Positions 9,772-17,403 are shown, counted from the first letter of the stretch. The stretch: DNA of 50,963 bases from a virus (IMGVR_UViG_3300044825_001111:1-50963); one strand, 5' to 3'. Notes: a model not told the origin generated them from the letters alone. A program made the numbers and translations.

Positions 9772-10160
9772 GAACCCCCACACCCCACGTCGACCTTTAC
9801 GGCTGGTGGATGGTCGCCCTCGGCGGCGGCGATCCCGAGACGACCCACGAAGTTCAATGTGGCTGGTTTAAGCGCCGACTGGTGAAGGGCGGGCCGTGGG
9901 TGCCGGCACGGATCTGGATGGATCAGCCGGTCGACGAACTGGGCGAACTCTGCGGCGACGAAACCCTGCAATGCGAGGTCGCTGGCCGCTGGGCCGATCC
10001 CGAGGACGCCTGGACCTGGCTCTGCGCCAATCCGATCAGTGAGCAAGAGTTCAAGTATCTGACCGCGCTTGCCGAGCATTGCGAGCGGCACGAGCCGGAC
10101 CATCCGGCGGCCAATCCGCGCAAAGCCATCGACCATTTGTCAACGCCTCTGCATTTCTGA
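9768..10160 (+). CDS. Conserved phage hypothetical protein
   Basis: GGAGG RBS; QCGWFKRRLVKGGPWVPARIW. Confidence 0.75.
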   Translation: MRTPTPHVDLYGWWMVALGGGDPETTHEVQCGWFKRRLVKGGPWVPARIWMDQPVDELGELCGDETLQCEVAGRWADPEDAWTWLCANPISEQEFKYLTALAEHCERHEPDHPAANPRKAIDHLSTPLHF

Positions 10161-10171
10161 AAGGAACCACC

Positions 10172-10957
10172 ATGTCGCTTGCCGAAGACCTGCGCGGCCA
10201 CAACCTGCCGCCCCCTGACCTGCTCACCGGCGATGCCCTGCGCGCCAAGCTGCAGGCCGACCACGAGGCCTTGCTGAAACGCCGCGACGAATTGCTCGCG
10301 GCCGAGGCGCGGATCCCGGCGATCGATAACGAGGACGCCGCCCGCAAATGCTCGGATTTCATCAAGCAGATCACGGCCGCCGCCAAGACGGCAGACACCG
10401 CTAGGGTCGGCGCCAAGGAGCCCTACCTGGAAGGCGGGCGCGGGATTGATGGGTTTTTCCGCGCAATCAGCGATCCGCTCACCGATCTCAAGAAGAAGGT
10501 CGAGCGCAAGCTCACCGACTACCTGCGCCAGAAAGAGGCCGAAGAGCGTGAACGCCGCCAGCGCGAAGAGCGGGAAGCCCGCGAGCGGGCCGAACAGGCC
10601 CGCAGGGAAGCCGAAGCCGCCGCCCAGGCCATGCGCGACGCCGCCAGCCTCGACGAAGCGGTGCAGGCCGAGAAGGCCGCCGATGCCGCCGCCGCTGATG
10701 TGGTGAAGGCCGAAGCCGCCGCCACCGCCAAGCCCGCCGAACTGTCGCGGACCCGCGGCGAGTATGGCGCAGTCTCGAGCCTCAGAACCGAATGGGTTTT
10801 CGAAGGCGTCGACCGCGCGACGATCGACCTTGAGACGCTTCGCCCCTACCTGCCGGTCGACGGCATCGAGAAGGCGATCCGATCCTTCATCCGCGCCGGT
10901 GGCCGCGAGCTGCGCGGCACCCGGATCTACGAAACCACAAACGCAGTCGTGAGGTAA
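10172..10957 (+). CDS. Coiled-coil phage protein of the recombination module
   Basis: GHNLPP start, long E/R/A-rich helix, RELRGTRIYE end; upstream of RecT. Confidence 0.75.
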   Translation: MSLAEDLRGHNLPPPDLLTGDALRAKLQADHEALLKRRDELLAAEARIPAIDNEDAARKCSDFIKQITAAAKTADTARVGAKEPYLEGGRGIDGFFRAISDPLTDLKKKVERKLTDYLRQKEAEERERRQREEREARERAEQARREAEAAAQAMRDAASLDEAVQAEKAADAAAADVVKAEAAATAKPAELSRTRGEYGAVSSLRTEWVFEGVDRATIDLETLRPYLPVDGIEKAIRSFIRAGGRELRGTRIYETTNAVVR

Positions 10958-10960
10958 GCC

Positions 10961-12001
10961 ATGAACGAAGTCGCCACGAAAGCCCCGAACCCGCTGGTCG
11001 CTTTGCACGACCAGATGGAACGCCGAACCGGCCAGTTCGCCGCCGCCCTGCCCGCTCACATTCCCGCCGAGAGGTTCAAGCGGGTGCTGCTGACCGCGGT
11101 CCAGAATAACCCGACGTTGGCCACCGCTGACCGGCAGACCTTCTTCAACAGCGCGATGAAGGCGGCCCAGGACGGACTTCTGCCGGACGGCCGCGAAGGC
11201 GCGATGGTGATCTACAAGACCAAGGTCAAAGAGGGCAACCGCGAGTTCTGGGTCGACGCCGTCCAATGGATGCCCATGATCGGCGGGATCCGCAAGAAGG
11301 TCCGCAACTCGGGCGAGATCGAGACATGGGACGCCCATTGCGTCTACGAGAACGACGCCTTCGAGTTCGAGCTCGGCGACAGCCCCTACATCAAGCACAA
11401 GCCCGCACTGAGCGGCGACCGCGGCAAGATCATCGCCGCCTATTCGGTGGCGACTTTGAAGAGCGGCGAGAAGTCCCGCGAGGTCATGTCGATCGACGAG
11501 ATCATGGCGGTCTGGCGGAAGTCGTCGAAGCAGAAGGACAAGGAAGGGAACCCGAGCGGCCCCTGGAAGGACCACCTCGGCGAAATGTGTCGCAAGACGG
11601 TCGCGCGCCGGCACTCCAAGGTGCTGCCGATGTCGACCGATCTGGACGACCTGCTGCGCCGGGACGATGACCTGTACGACATGGAAGGCGCCAGCGACAA
11701 GGCATTGCCGCCGTCTGCGAAGCGCCCGCAGATCAGCGACTTTGCCGAACTGCCACAGAACCCGGTGATGACCGAGGATCCGAAGGCGCCGAAGCCCGAA
11801 CCCGCCGCCGAGAAGGTCGACGAGGAAACCGGCGAGATCACCGAGGTCGGCGTTCCCGAGGCGATGGAGCTGGGCCGCCAGCGTCGCAAGGACAATCGGC
11901 CCAGGCGCCCGATCGACGGGCTGACCGAAGCCGAGGCCTCGGCATTTCTGCAGGGCTGGGACAGCGAAGACGATCTCATACAGCAGGCCGCGAAACGTTG
12001 A
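10961..12001 (+). CDS. recT: RecT-family single-strand annealing protein
   Basis: ALPAHIPAERFKR...AAQDGLLPDGRE...GPWKDHLGEMCRKTVARR. Confidence 0.9.
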   Translation: MNEVATKAPNPLVALHDQMERRTGQFAAALPAHIPAERFKRVLLTAVQNNPTLATADRQTFFNSAMKAAQDGLLPDGREGAMVIYKTKVKEGNREFWVDAVQWMPMIGGIRKKVRNSGEIETWDAHCVYENDAFEFELGDSPYIKHKPALSGDRGKIIAAYSVATLKSGEKSREVMSIDEIMAVWRKSSKQKDKEGNPSGPWKDHLGEMCRKTVARRHSKVLPMSTDLDDLLRRDDDLYDMEGASDKALPPSAKRPQISDFAELPQNPVMTEDPKAPKPEPAAEKVDEETGEITEVGVPEAMELGRQRRKDNRPRRPIDGLTEAEASAFLQGWDSEDDLIQQAAKR

Positions 12002-12033
12002 ACGTGCATAAGCAAACCAGACAGGAGAACGAA

Positions 12034-12786
12034 ATGGCTAAGAACGAAACGACTGCGACACTCCACATCGACCCGCTCAAGCAGGGCCGCGTCAAGATGC
12101 GGATCATTGGCTCCACGCCGATGTTCTTCAACGCGATGAGCGCCAAGGCGAAGCGATCGCTGCTGCTTGGCGGCGGCAAGAAGACTGCGGCCGAGAAGAA
12201 GGAGATCAAGCATGATCCCGAGGCCGAGTTCCGCGACAGCACCTATCGGTCGCAGTCAGGCCCGACGCTGCTGGTGTTCCCGGCGCCCGGCATCAAGAAT
12301 GCGATGGCGACCGCCGCACTCGTCACCGACGGCGTGAAGAAAACCGACGTGCAGCGGCTGATCTTCTTGCCGCAGGAAAAGGTATCGATCTGGGGTCGGC
12401 CGTACCTGCGGATGGACGTGGTTCGCAGCGCCGACATGAACAAAACGCCAGACGTTCGGACGCGCGCTTTCCTGCCGCGCTGGTGCGCCGAGGTGGACTT
12501 CGCCTTTGTGACGCCGAGCCTGTCGGTTCACTCGATCGCCTCGCTGCTGGCGAACGCCGGGCTGGTGTCGGGGATCGGCGACTTCCGGCAGGAAAAGGGC
12601 AAAGGCAGCTATGGAACCTTCCGCATTGTCTCGGACGAGGACGACGAAGCGCTCTGGAAGGAACTAACCGAAAGCGAAGGGCGCGAGTGCCAAGAGGCGG
12701 CGATGGCCGATCCTCATGCGTTTGATTCCGAAACGCAGGAACTGTGGGCGATGCTTCGTCAGGAGCGGATGCGCAGGGCGGCGTGA
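12034..12786 (+). CDS. Stand-alone Cas7/RAMP-like protein (putative Vipr-type RNA-binding effector)
   Basis: RAMP-like layout: N-terminal strand IIGSTPMFF, helix FPAPGIKNAM, C-terminal Gly-rich loop AGLVSGIGDFRQEKGKGSYGTFRI; AGGAG RBS; array follows directly. Confidence 0.75.
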   Translation: MAKNETTATLHIDPLKQGRVKMRIIGSTPMFFNAMSAKAKRSLLLGGGKKTAAEKKEIKHDPEAEFRDSTYRSQSGPTLLVFPAPGIKNAMATAALVTDGVKKTDVQRLIFLPQEKVSIWGRPYLRMDVVRSADMNKTPDVRTRAFLPRWCAEVDFAFVTPSLSVHSIASLLANAGLVSGIGDFRQEKGKGSYGTFRIVSDEDDEALWKELTESEGRECQEAAMADPHAFDSETQELWAMLRQERMRRAA

Positions 12787-12790
12787 TGAG

Positions 12791-13370
12791 CTTGGTCGAG
12801 GTGAGGCACGGCCGGTCGAGATCTGGATGGGCGCGGTCAGGCATGGCGGTCGGCGTTAGGAACGGCGGGGTGTGTCCCGCAGAGTTATGGCTTGGCGGTC
12901 GGGGCACGGTTCGGCACGGCGGCGCGGGTCATGGAATGGCGGTCCTGGAGAGGCTGGTTCTGGTCAGGCGCTGCACGTCCGGTCAAGGCGGTCGAGGACG
13001 GACAGGCCCGGCAGGGACCGGCCGGATTGGTCACGGCACGGGTCAGGCGGTCGCGGTTTGGCCTCGCGCTTCGGGGCTGGGTGAGTTGAGGTGCGGCGAG
13101 GTCTGGCGGTCCTGGTCGGGCCGGGCCTGCAGCGGAGAGGCGCGACATGGCGAGTCGCGTTCAGTTCCGGCTGGGCGGTCAAGGTACGTCGTGGCTGTGT
13201 TTGGCGTGGTGGCGAATGGTCTGGCGACGCAAGGCGGTCGAGGACTGGCATCGCGTGGACTGGCAGGGTTTGGCGCGGGCTGGCGGTCATGAAGGGGAAT
13301 GTTCTGGCGCGGCCCGGAGTGTCGCGGCGGTCAAGGCAAGCATGGAAACGGAACGGCTTGGATAGGACAG
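12791..13370 (+). repeat. GGY-NN pentamer array of about 11 units delimited by GGCGGTC (putative guide ncRNA array)
   Basis: GGCGGTC at 12845, 12894, 12938, 12987, 13046, 13105, 13174, 13233, 13282, 13326; spacings 49,44,49,59,59,69,59,49,44 (all 5n+4); interiors show 5-nt periodic GGY-like triplets alternating with variable dinucleotides. Confidence 0.9.
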
Positions 13371-13373
13371 ACA

Positions 13374-13901
13374 ATGGCGAAGTTTGACAGAACTTACCGA
13401 CAAAAGATCGTCGACGAATACCTCAACGCGACGGGCGAGAACACTTTCGTGCCCGCCGCTTTCATCGACTGGCTGCGCGATCAGCCAGACCATCGGGCTT
13501 ATCCGATCTTCTTCTCCAAATCCGACGAGGACGCGGCTGCAGAATACCGGATCAACCTGGCCCGGCAGTTCGTCAGCGGCTTGCGGGTGAAGATCCGCAT
13601 GACCGCGACGACGATCGACGAGGGCGGGCGCGAGGTGAAGGTGACGGAGAGCGCGGTGACCGCGGTGCGGGTGCCGGCCTTCTATTCACCACTGAGCGAG
13701 CGAAAGGGCGGCGGCGGTTATCACGCCTTCGACTCCGAGGATCCTGCGGCGTTGCGCGAGCTGCGCCGGCAGGCGGCGACCGATCTTCGCCGGTTCATCC
13801 ACCGGCACGAGGGCATCGCCAAGTTGAGCGGGATCTCGCTCGAAGCAATCAAGGTCATTGCTGCAGCGTTTGACGCACTCGACGTCAGCGAGGCGGCGTG
13901 A
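13374..13901 (+). CDS. Accessory protein flanking the array
   Basis: MAKFDRTYRQKIVDEYL...PDH...DEDAAAEYRINLARQFVSGLRV; starts immediately after the last array unit. Confidence 0.8.
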   Translation: MAKFDRTYRQKIVDEYLNATGENTFVPAAFIDWLRDQPDHRAYPIFFSKSDEDAAAEYRINLARQFVSGLRVKIRMTATTIDEGGREVKVTESAVTAVRVPAFYSPLSERKGGGGYHAFDSEDPAALRELRRQAATDLRRFIHRHEGIAKLSGISLEAIKVIAAAFDALDVSEAA

Positions 13902-13984
13902 TGGTCACGGCGGTCATGCCCCGGATGGGTAAGGTGCGGAACGGCGTATCTCGGAATGAACTGGAAGCGGCAAAGGAGGCCACC

Positions 13985-14131
13985 ATGGCGAAAGAGGCAA
14001 CGTCGAAGCGGGTCGCGCGCATCGCGGCGAAGGTGCTCAAGCAGAAGGATCTGTTCGGGCCGGACATCCTGGCGCTGGCGGCGAGCTGCCTGACCCAGCG
14101 CGAGCCGAAGAAGAAGCCAGCCAAGAAGTAG
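13985..14131 (+). CDS. Small basic protein
   Basis: AGGAGG RBS; MAKEATSKRVARIAAKVL...LAASCLTQR. Confidence 0.7.
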   Translation: MAKEATSKRVARIAAKVLKQKDLFGPDILALAASCLTQREPKKKPAKK

Positions 14132-14165
14132 TGCAGTGCAGTAACCCCAACAGGAGAATGAACCG

Positions 14166-14369
14166 ATGAAGTATCTACTTGCAGCAATCGCGATCGCGGC
14201 CATTACGACCCAGTCGCCGGCCTTCGACAAGCCCGCCTATGAAGCCGCGAAGCAGCAATGGAAGTCGGACAAGGCCGACTGGAAGGTCGCCGAGGAAGCC
14301 TGGAAGGCGGACGGCAAGCCGGACCCGAAGCCTGCGAAGCCCGCGAAGCCGGACCGCTCGCTCTACTAA
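14166..14369 (+). CDS. Small secreted protein
   Basis: Signal peptide MKYLLAAIAIAAITTQSPA; W-K heptads; KPAKP tail; AGGAG RBS. Confidence 0.75.
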   Translation: MKYLLAAIAIAAITTQSPAFDKPAYEAAKQQWKSDKADWKVAEEAWKADGKPDPKPAKPAKPDRSLY

Positions 14370-16066: not shown

Positions 16067-16708
16067 ATGCGCCGCGCAGCCGTGCCAAAGGTAAGCCTGC
16101 CGCCGGACGGCGAGCGCCGCGAAAGGGTGCTGGAAAGAAATGAAGTCGCCCGCCTGCTATGGGCGGCGCGGAAGCTGAAACTGCCGCACGTCGCGCGGTT
16201 CATCCTGATCGGGATTTATACAGGGACACGTCACAATGCGATGCTTAGCCTTAGATGGACGTCAAATCTCAGTGGGGGAAGCGTTGAGCTTGAGAGAGGC
16301 ATTATCTTCCGCCGTGGAAGCGCTGAACGAGAAACAAGCAAGCGGCGTCCTCCTGTCAGGATACATGAACGGTTGGTGGCTCACCTACATAGATGGCAGC
16401 GGGAAGACAGTGCAGCAGGACTTTCCAGCGTCATCCACTACCAAGGCCAGCGCATCGGCAAAATGAAACGCGCCTGGGCCAGCGTCGTCAAGGAGGCCGG
16501 GCTGGGCCGGGACGTGACGCCGCATGTCTTGCGCCATAGCTGCGCGAGTCATGCCTTGTGGGGGCGCCCGGCAAAAGGTGCGCGACCGGAGACTAGGCCG
16601 ATGACTATTTGGGACGTTGCGGGCGTCGTGGGCGCGGATGCTTCCACAATTGAACGAATTTACGGGCATCATCAGCGCATAGATGAGGGAGACAGGAGAA
16701 CCGCATGA
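16067..16708 (+). CDS. int: Tyrosine recombinase catalytic domain only (N-terminally truncated integrase)
   Basis: YTGTR, K, TPHVLRHS and IYGH catalytic pattern in 213 aa; no arm/core-binding domains. Confidence 0.8.
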   Translation: MRRAAVPKVSLPPDGERRERVLERNEVARLLWAARKLKLPHVARFILIGIYTGTRHNAMLSLRWTSNLSGGSVELERGIIFRRGSAERETSKRRPPVRIHERLVAHLHRWQREDSAAGLSSVIHYQGQRIGKMKRAWASVVKEAGLGRDVTPHVLRHSCASHALWGRPAKGARPETRPMTIWDVAGVVGADASTIERIYGHHQRIDEGDRRTA

Positions 16709-17403
16709 AACCCGTTCCACATTGCCCCGGATACTTTGCGAGCGAGGACGGCCATATTTTTCGCAATGGCTCCCAGCGAAAGCCGCGCACGAACGGGCGC
16801 GGGTATCTCAGGATAAAGGTGTCAGTGAACAATGCGCAATGGGATGAGTACGTTCATCGCATGGTCTGTGCGGCCTATCATGGCCCATGCCCTGACGGCT
16901 TTGAGTGCCGCCACCTGGACGGCAATCGCCAGCACAACTCGCCCAGCAATCTGGAGTGGGCCGACAAAGCCACCAACGAACGGGACAAGATAATTCACGG
17001 AACCATTTTGAGCGGCGAACGCAATGGGCAGGCCGAACTAACTGACGCGATTGTGATAGAGGCCAGACGCCGCGCGGCAGCTGGTGAACGCATAGATCAT
17101 ATCGCCGCTTCATTTGGGGTTAACCGCCTCACGCTTGGACAGGCAATAGCAGGGAAGCGTTGGAAACATTTGCCCGGAGGGCTTGGGTCGTTTTCCACGA
17201 GGCGAAAGTTCAAGCCAGATGGCATTGTCAGGATCAGAAGGGAGTATGCGAGCGGTCGGCTTCAAAGGGACATCGCCGCCGAGTATGGCGTCAACCAAAC
17301 CGCCATTGGCGCAATTGTCAGGCGAGAGGCCTATCCTCATATCTCTGATGCGGCGGAGAACACCCACAGAAAGATCGACGCGCCGGAAAGGAAGAAGGCA
17401 TGA
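16705..17403 (+). CDS. NUMOD4-HNH endonuclease with C-terminal HTH repeats
   Basis: GYFASEDGHI...VHRMV..A...CRHLDGN..HN..SNLEW. Confidence 0.88.
   Translation: MKPVPHCPGYFASEDGHIFRNGSQRKPRTNGRGYLRIKVSVNNAQWDEYVHRMVCAAYHGPCPDGFECRHLDGNRQHNSPSNLEWADKATNERDKIIHGTILSGERNGQAELTDAIVIEARRRAAAGERIDHIAASFGVNRLTLGQAIAGKRWKHLPGGLGSFSTRRKFKPDGIVRIRREYASGRLQRDIAAEYGVNQTAIGAIVRREAYPHISDAAENTHRKIDAPERKKA

Follow-up and report, generated by a model that had tools for sequence, protein, structure and literature searches.

What kind of element is the G-rich tract that follows a gene for a 250-amino-acid (aa) protein in the virus record IMGVR_UViG_3300044825_001111:1-50963, and at which gene could one of its repeat units be aimed? 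The record, all 50,963 nucleotides (nt) of which are referred to below as the window, is a complete linear tailed-phage genome with portal, protease-capsid fusion, tape measure and tail fibre genes. The tract comprises 590 nt (positions 12787-13376; G 266, C 137, A 82, T 105) and is without a convincing coding frame. By fold and repeat code, the locus is a Viral Interference Programmable Repeat (VIPR) system with a staggered array, and we put at roughly 0.65 the probability that one unit, U2, is a guide of this phage vrRNA array fitted to patatin genes, which probably represses the patatin effector of a host or of a rival prophage.

VIPR systems are the subject of 2026 preprints (10.64898/2026.04.26.720920, 10.64898/2026.04.26.720927, 10.64898/2026.10.15.759431), cited here and below from the accessible portions of their text. 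According to these, Vipr, a small RAMP protein with an RRM core, a glycine-rich loop and a thumb, polymerises on a vrRNA of GGY/NN pentamers, in which GGY is buried and NN is presented (10.64898/2026.04.26.720920, 10.64898/2026.04.26.720927). The NN pairs bind double-stranded DNA with one base skipped per pair, mostly the codon wobble base, and the filament represses transcription; in nature, guides are directed against rival phages and satellites, prophage regulators and other VIPR loci (10.64898/2026.04.26.720920). The same source distinguishes seven types, some with "staggered" arrays in which the vrRNAs overlap by 1 nt, gives 9-16 repeats for the guides of the studied systems, and states that disturbed GGY motifs abolish silencing in the system of Escherichia phage SUSP1.

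The tract shows a corresponding anatomy. The heptamer GGCGGTC occurs ten times between 12845 and 13326, at spacings of 49, 44, 49, 59, 59, 69, 59, 49 and 44 nt; all nine are of the form 5k-1, which whole pentamers overlapping by 1 nt would give. GG-to-GG distances of 5 nt number 48 in the tract against 23.8 expected (z 5.0, 500 mononucleotide shuffles), and distances of 10, 15 and 20 nt are likewise enriched (z 2.5, 3.7 and 2.8). The 7-nt delimiter is the only constant part between guides and the units abut directly; since no structured 3' tail separates the guides, the architecture is not that of type II. Rfam returned no family for the array at the gathering score in a search of the whole window, and Tandem Repeats Finder did not report it because its units are too divergent. 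The unit of interest, bounded by the delimiters at 12894 and 12938 and in register with the array, reads gg GGC ac GGT tc GGC ac GGC gg CGC gg GTC at GGA at (12901-12937), so that its NN string is GG AC TC AC GG GG AT AT and, with the pairs taken as codon bases 1 and 2, it decodes to G-T-S-T-G-G-(I/M)-(I/M). An earlier note, made from this DNA alone, had given this sequence and this decoding, and both stand as written; its end point of 12937 needs moving, as it omits the closing GGC-GG. The limits that we infer for U2 (Table 1) follow the wording of the Fig. S18 legend on vrRNAs overlapping by 1 nt in the first preprint.

Is the adjacent 250-aa protein a Vipr? It has no Pfam family and matches phrog_4652, whose function is not known (E 3.6e-12). 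Its AlphaFold2 (AF2) model, based on 27 sequences (mean local confidence, pLDDT, 74.4; predicted template modelling score, pTM, 0.74), gave 28 Foldseek matches against the PDB at E<=0.001 (best E 3.9e-5, template modelling (TM) scores 0.3-0.45), headed by type III-A Csm3 subunits, type VII Cas7, Cmr4 and Cas7-11. In a search of PDB sequences with the family profile, the SUSP1 Vipr (36pp_D) was matched at E 0.017 over the glycine-rich G-loop, where naGxxGiGDfR in the family described here aligns with NAGNLCGVGDWR (GVGDWR) in SUSP1 Vipr. Residues G180, G182, D183, F184 and R185 of this loop, GxGD(F)R, are invariant in 27 of 27 homologues, and the last three correspond to D177, W178 and R179 of SUSP1 Vipr, which contact G1, G2 and Y3 (10.64898/2026.04.26.720927). 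No BLAST-level similarity to SUSP1 was found. By E-value, the best PDB sequence match was EpiD (E 0.0025, 44 residues), which looks spurious and unrelated. Distant homologues annotated as hypothetical also occur in cultured actinobacteriophages (31-33% identity, E 2e-19 to ~1e-8), including NC_031249.1 32732-33316 (Gordonia phage UmaThurman gene 39) and 25 Mycobacterium phage records. The 174-aa protein encoded behind the array is a candidate for the second VIPR gene, vap (Vipr-accessory protein). It has no Pfam family and a single weak PHROG match (phrog_15946, E 0.0051), its AF2 model has a pLDDT of 79.5, and a fold search against the PDB gave nothing significant (best E 0.49). To judge from gene order, this candidate and vipr fit the two-gene VIPR layout (vipr + vap).

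The association of gene and array is conserved. Relatives of the 250-aa protein are encoded by 252 viral contigs, and the related-locus counts refer to the best 80 of these (61-96% identity to the 250-aa protein). GGCGGTC motifs lie within 800 nt downstream of the vipr homologue in 80 of 80 loci, and a homologue of the 174-aa protein follows vipr in 75; the array itself may stand before the first gene, between both genes or after the second. The cleaner related arrays are plain runs of NN + GGY pentamers. Spacings between delimiters of up to 90 nt are 4 mod 5 in 509 of 613 cases. From 82 sources, 341 distinct NN strings were parsed, with guides of 6-15 NN (mode 8) in units of 34-79 nt. The clade triplets (n=2900) are mainly GGC (42%) and GGT (27%), followed by GTT (10.6%), GGA (5.0%), GTC (4.4%) and CGC (0.4%). 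In the NN pairs, the first base is G in 36% and A in 30%, and the second A in 29% and T in 28%; the most frequent dinucleotides are GA (11.4%), AA (10.3%), AT (9.4%), GC (8.4%), GT (8.3%) and GG (7.7%). This composition looks like that of sense-strand codon positions 1 and 2. In several of the related loci, the vipr stop codon is separated from the first GGCGGTC by a GC-rich hairpin of the GGGGCAG...CTGCCCC type, possibly a terminator or a signal for processing. No such hairpin is present in the window, where the array begins right at the vipr stop codon.

These data raise the question of what U2 would recognise. Patatin-like phospholipases have GTSTGG(I/M)(I/M) as their nucleophile elbow, and many of these enzymes serve as CapV-type effectors in cyclic-oligonucleotide-based antiphage signalling systems (CBASS). 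The target-side pattern of U2, GGNACNTCNACNGGNGGNATNAT, was searched for exact matches. The scan of genome contigs returned at least 120, and the genomic fractions given here are among the matches listed: 112 of 120 lie in frame in open reading frames (ORFs) of at least 100 aa, of which 94 belong to Patatin (PF01734), 15 to Asparaginase_2 and 1 to DUF1269, and PADLOC "Effector: Phospholipase" models match 94 of the 112. The complete scan of viral contigs gave 86 exact matches, of which 73 fall within long ORFs, in frame and with patatin context. In these 73 and in 92 genomic matches, the context xDxxxGTSTGG places the pattern in frame at the G-x-S-x-G nucleophile elbow. Ala directly follows GTSTGGII in 85 of the 92 genomic patatin matches, and the residue after GTSTGGMM varies in the asparaginase matches. 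The latter are isoaspartyl-peptidase/asparaginase genes in which AAGTSTGGMM lies at the Thr-nucleophile region, and they are possible off-targets.

Control patterns behaved differently. Two shuffled-order versions matched viral contigs 16 and 18 times, in mixed contexts and never in patatin. As 11 of the 16 and 13 of the 18 were also in frame in ORFs of at least 150 aa, frame alone proves little, and the difference lies in the count and in the concentration on a single family. Among 401 genomes drawn evenly from the class of Rhizobium, 26 contain an exact match to the pattern, compared with 0 for the reversed control. Most of the eight codons show all four bases as their wobble base when the matches are compared; a contiguous guide could not cover these genes. 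The pattern is absent from the window at up to 3 mismatches.

A further issue is whether the matched genes belong to antiviral systems. CBASS cyclase models match 25 of 83 same-strand neighbour ORFs of the 92 genomic patatin matches, at least 25 of which adjoin a cyclase; around the 73 viral patatin ORFs, PADLOC cyclase models match 11 of 71 neighbours. Many of the matched patatin genes may be of the CBASS type, and others may be stand-alone patatins or parts of other systems. The earlier note had read the unit as a possible guide that pairs two bases, skips the third and could silence a patatin defence gene in an alphaproteobacterial setting. The choice of the patatin motif is borne out by the dominance of in-frame Patatin genes and by both controls, and the link to defence effectors applies to a subset of the matches. 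The register that it assumed is the published VIPR rule, under which another guide of the window, U7, matches a rival-phage gene in frame, so that the wobble-skipping idea was right as a rule and not new as a mechanism, having been published in 2026. The alphaproteobacterial setting gained no support, Vipr not being found in the 401 genomes of Rhizobium's class; tblastn searches for a host with the portal and Vipr proteins gave distant isolates only, below 60% identity.

One additional piece of evidence is the recurrence of the guide. A scan for its vrRNA-side core (AC-GGY-TC-GGY-AC-GGY-GG) gave 33 matches, few of them in VIPR-like lattices. The second array that carries the guide belongs to G406, a complete 77.7-kb phage with terminal repeats whose Vipr is 47% identical to that of the window (E 1.2e-67). 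Its array has the same GGCGGTC punctuation, and the guides adjoining its patatin unit are unrelated to those of the window. The G406 unit has the NN string GG AC TC AC GG GG AT AT GC, which decodes to GTSTGGII followed by Ala. It has the same 16 NN bases as U2, although the two units differ in 4 of the 8 triplets that they have in common. The target pattern is absent from both phages at up to 2 mismatches, and there is thus no self-target.

Does the skip rule operate in this clade? We converted 274 guides of at least 8 pairs into NNx patterns and compared them with 7.6 Mb of locus sequence, allowing ~10% mismatches at most. Of the resulting matches, 436 lay in the loci of a phage family defined by a Sak4-like AAA_24 gene (508 contigs) and 19 in VIPR loci, compared with 15 in total for twice as many shuffled guides. 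Guides of different arrays match four Sak4 motifs (KYDTVFVD, KTGKPDxRGAY, KNVWFVGILDE and GIVDxVxTxAE), and one further target is a motif in a Cas4-type exonuclease gene; the listed matches to both genes are all on the sense strand and all in frame. U7 matches 80 of 80 Sak4-family loci at 18/22 or better, 63 of them at 20/22, with differing wobble bases and with 0 matches in 30 shuffles; its target gene is annotated AAA_24 / phrog_124. Guides from some of the related arrays match genes in loci that adjoin other VIPR systems of the same clade, one group at the peptide KVVRMEADIRK in 7 loci (20-21/22) and another at DVEGIVTN in 5 loci (16/16), which suggests that related VIPR phages may target each other.

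For the other guides of the window, the searches were less productive. No guide of the window matches the window itself at 85% of NN bases or more. U1, U3, U4, U6, U8, U9, U10 and U11 have no match at >=85% in 2.16 Mb of loci and none at >=80% in the 1-Mb Sak4 set. Scans with nine-NN cores gave 13 matches for U6 and 10 for U5, at chance level outside the core (18-21/26 and 19-20/22) and mostly in copies of one gene, and no convincing target emerged. The 9-pair core of guide U5 (13046-13104) falls in frame on the peptide LLAGWE(D/E)AEE of a 619-760-aa head protease-capsid fusion (phrog_133) at 19/22 overall; we regard this as a lead, as the seven viral contigs concerned hold copies of one gene and the match outside the core is at chance level.

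The two lines of evidence meet in one contig of the Sak4 family, L233 (14.3 kb), which carries, in order, a SMODS cyclase, a patatin, an integrase, a repressor-like helix-turn-helix (HTH) gene and the Sak4-like gene. Its patatin matches U2 at 16/16 and the G406 guide at 18/18, and its Sak4-like gene matches U7 at 10443 (20/22, in frame). Since the cyclase-patatin pair and the U7-matched gene stand together, a rival temperate phage can carry an effector gene fitted by U2.

How might such a guide act? By analogy with the solved SUSP1 system, the array would be transcribed and processed, and Vipr would be loaded on the transcript with one protomer per pentamer, burying each G(G/T)Y triplet and presenting each NN pair. 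The pairs would base-pair with double-stranded DNA, every third base being skipped, and the bound filament would block transcription. The U2 RNA would direct the filament to the 23 bp that encode the nucleophile elbow, close to the 5' end of patatin genes, and with the wobble base ignored, one 45-nt RNA would fit patatin genes of very different codon usage. The repressed gene could lie in the host chromosome or in a resident rival prophage, and the phage would presumably benefit from its repression. As the vap candidate has no recognisable fold, this type of system may either repress or cut.

Several observations weigh against this reading. The sequence link to the solved Vipr is weak, the E-value of EpiD being better than that of SUSP1 Vipr, and the Foldseek TM-scores are low. 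Only 5 of the 8 triplets of U2 are perfect GGY; CGC, GTC and GGA are not, and CGC is rare. Since disturbance of GGY abolishes silencing in SUSP1, according to the accessible text of 10.64898/2026.04.26.720920, this copy could be weak or dead. Its eight NN pairs also fall short of the 9-16 repeats of the studied systems. The pattern is not unique to patatin, 15 of the 120 listed genome matches being asparaginase-type, and L233 is the only one of 80 Sak4-family loci with a patatin match. The guide occurs in two arrays only: the arrays of the 80 closest VIPR loci do not have it, and a strict metagenome scan returned the G406 contig again and nothing else. The first four pentamers of U2 and the G406 unit differ at 1 of 22 bases, so that shared ancestry rather than convergence is possible. 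Finally, transcriptional silencing would leave in place the effector protein already present, and the benefit in a lytic infection is thus unclear.

The alternatives differ in how much of this evidence they can accommodate. The one to which we give most weight, while considering it unlikely, is that U2 was once directed at patatin genes and has decayed, its degenerate CGC, GTC and GGA triplets now preventing Vipr loading. Its three non-GGY triplets, one of them of a kind that makes up 0.4% of clade triplets, would be expected in that case, several units of the window are even more degenerate (the unit at 12987 has 18% G(G/T)Y triplets), and the perturbation result from SUSP1 (accessible text of 10.64898/2026.04.26.720920) points the same way. 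However, U7, in which no more than 7 of 11 triplets are perfect GGY, still matches its target family at 20/22, GTC, GTT and GGA together form 20% of clade triplets and are probably tolerated, and between the two phages 16 of 16 NN bases were kept while 4 of 8 triplets changed. Slightly less likely still is that U2 is a genuine guide whose patatin match is coincidental, the target for which it evolved being elsewhere, perhaps imperfect, in a rival phage, as for most clade guides. Besides U2 and its G406 twin, all 455 clade guide matches fall on phage genes (Sak4-like, Cas4-type exonuclease or VIPR-flanking), the published natural targets are rival elements (accessible text of 10.64898/2026.04.26.720920), and in-frame placement does not discriminate, as the shuffled patterns showed. 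That eight codons of one family's most conserved motif should be matched exactly, at five times the control count, is nevertheless unlikely by chance; moreover, the ninth pair of the G406 guide again follows the family consensus, and no alternative target was found at >=85% of NN bases in the 2.16 Mb of loci.

That the biological target is the isoaspartyl peptidase/asparaginase family, through AAGTSTGGMM, is very improbable. Fifteen of the 112 scanned ORFs among the matches listed are Asparaginase_2 with the motif in frame, yet such genes have housekeeping roles and no evident connection with phage conflict, none was seen among the 86 viral matches, and the Ala encoded by the ninth G406 pair fits patatin, the residue after GTSTGGMM being variable. 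Least probable of all is that the array is no guide RNA and represents instead a TRAP-like triplet array, a G-quadruplex tract, a cluster of Chi or primase sites, or iterons. The G-rich strand asymmetry of the tract and the repeated 7-mer would suit such an element, but the hypervariable NN pairs of codon-like composition, the many guides that match rival-phage genes in frame when shuffled guides hardly ever do, and the Cas7-like neighbour gene would all be left unexplained. TRAP-like sites, two-tetrad G-quadruplexes, Chi or primase-site clusters, iterons and RecT loading sites were considered as candidates and set aside in view of the match to VIPR and the in-frame targets. We therefore retain U2 as a probable patatin guide, and its coordinates and those of the other features of the locus are presented in Table 1.

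Table 1 Features of the VIPR locus in the window
Feature	Position	Strand	Basis
vipr, 250-aa RAMP (Cas7/Csm3-like) protein	12034..12786	+	AF2 fold, family profile, G-loop
Array lead: degenerate pentamers punctuated by GGTC, right behind the vipr stop codon	12787..12844	+	Sequence; no full GGCGGTC delimiter; not parsed into guides
Staggered vrRNA array, 10 GGCGGTC-delimited units of NN + G(G/T)Y pentamers	12845..13376	+	Delimiters, 5k-1 spacing, period-5 GG, conservation
Guide U2: GTC, 8 variable NN, closing GGC-GG; one-base-skip rule gives GGnACnTCnACnGGnGGnATnAT = GTSTGG(I/M)(I/M)	12898..12942	+	
Guide U7, NN = AA AC GT TG TT GT GG AT CT GA AA; matches Sak4-like AAA_24 gene at KNVWFVGILDE	13178..13237	+	
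Candidate vap (Vipr-accessory protein), 174 aa	13377..13901	+	Homologue 3' of vipr in related loci
Solitary vrRNA-like unit 3' of vap, degenerate triplets, eleventh delimiter at 13909	13903..13985	+	

As for the surroundings of the locus, an exonuclease (phrog_10477) and a RecT annealing protein are encoded directly upstream of vipr (10079-12001). Near vipr in the related loci, RecT was found in 1 of 80 and the exonuclease in 0 of 80; therefore, these two genes are not part of the VIPR module. The annealing protein of the rival family targeted by the clade is of the Sak4 type, not RecT. Further downstream (16067-17403), a short tyrosine-recombinase-like ORF (213 aa) precedes the gene for an HNH endonuclease that has an HTH tail, and no full-length integrase was seen in the annotated part of the window. 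A perfect (TGAGGG)x5 hexamer repeat lies at 2320-2349. Promoter and terminator scans gave nothing useful near the array, and blastn of 12000-14200 against GenBank phages returned no match.

What appears to be new in this locus concerns the target rather than the machinery. The principle of skipping the wobble base has been published, in the Discussion of 10.64898/2026.04.26.720920 and the abstract of 10.64898/2026.10.15.759431, and both the mechanism and the kind of system are already known; the target class, a defence-effector family reached through its catalytic motif, appears to be unreported. The accessible parts of these two preprints contain no mention of patatin, phospholipase or CBASS, and a literature search found no paper that joins "vrRNA" and "patatin"; supplementary VIPR target lists may hold defence-gene targets or this clade. 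We put forward, as a tentative generalisation that we hold at somewhat less than even odds, that phage VIPR arrays include "pan-family" guides which, instead of following the gene of a single rival, exploit the wobble skip to fit a catalytic motif that is invariant in a family of immune effectors, here the CapV-type CBASS patatins. If this is true, a single ~45-nt RNA could repress the patatin effector in any host or resident prophage; this would amount to RNA-guided counter-defence, with a defence gene as a VIPR target for the first time. The retention of the guide in two phages with 47% identical Vipr suggests that VIPR can be aimed at immune effectors and that, through the gapped code, one guide can cover a whole protein family. 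The locus also adds another VIPR system of the little-described staggered-array kind, and its clade offers many natural guide-target pairs (four sites in one Sak4-like gene) for establishing targeting rules beyond type II.

How, then, does the locus compare with known systems? With type II VIPR (Escherichia phage SUSP1, P. fulva prophage) it shares a phage-encoded small RAMP protein beside intergenic GGY/NN arrays, a second conserved gene, the one-base-skip reading with the skipped base on the codon wobble, guides that converge on rival mobile elements, and the absence of self-targets. Type II vrRNAs carry a structured 3' tail that is invariant and, in the SUSP1 clade, forms a pseudoknot, whereas the locus described here is without a long invariant tail; its abutting 5k-1 units are consistent with the staggered arrays overlapping by 1 nt in a figure legend of 10.64898/2026.04.26.720920. 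The triplet consensus is G(G/T)Y instead of the GGY of type II, and the clade guides have 6-15 NN with a mode of 8, compared with 9-16 repeats in the studied systems. Relative to SUSP1 Vipr, the protein, at 250 aa, has a C-terminal helical extension and F instead of W in the G-loop, and the vap candidate is without a recognisable fold, a further difference from type II.

The predicted fold of Vipr is shared with the backbone of class 1 CRISPR complexes (Csm3/Cmr4/Cas7), as is, according to the accessible text of 10.64898/2026.04.26.720927, the mode of binding RNA, in which bases are flipped at regular intervals by a thumb. In VIPR the period is 5 nt for the guide and 3 nt for the target, compared with 6 + 6 in class 1 CRISPR, and the window contains no CRISPR repeats, other cas genes or acquisition module. 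The identity of Vipr to the class 1 backbone proteins is 9-14%, with low TM-scores. Phage anti-CBASS proteins such as Acb1 and Acb2 act after transcription, degrading or sequestering the cyclic-nucleotide signal; the end, the neutralisation of CBASS, is the same, whereas the action proposed here would be RNA-guided repression of the effector gene. A parallel in targeting is SUSP1 vrRNA4 against a satellite recombinase, for which the accessible part of 10.64898/2026.10.15.759431 describes a footprint aligned to codon periodicity, as here, such that synonymous changes give no escape. There, the guide follows one gene of one satellite family, whereas U2 follows a catalytic motif common to patatin genes across many phyla.

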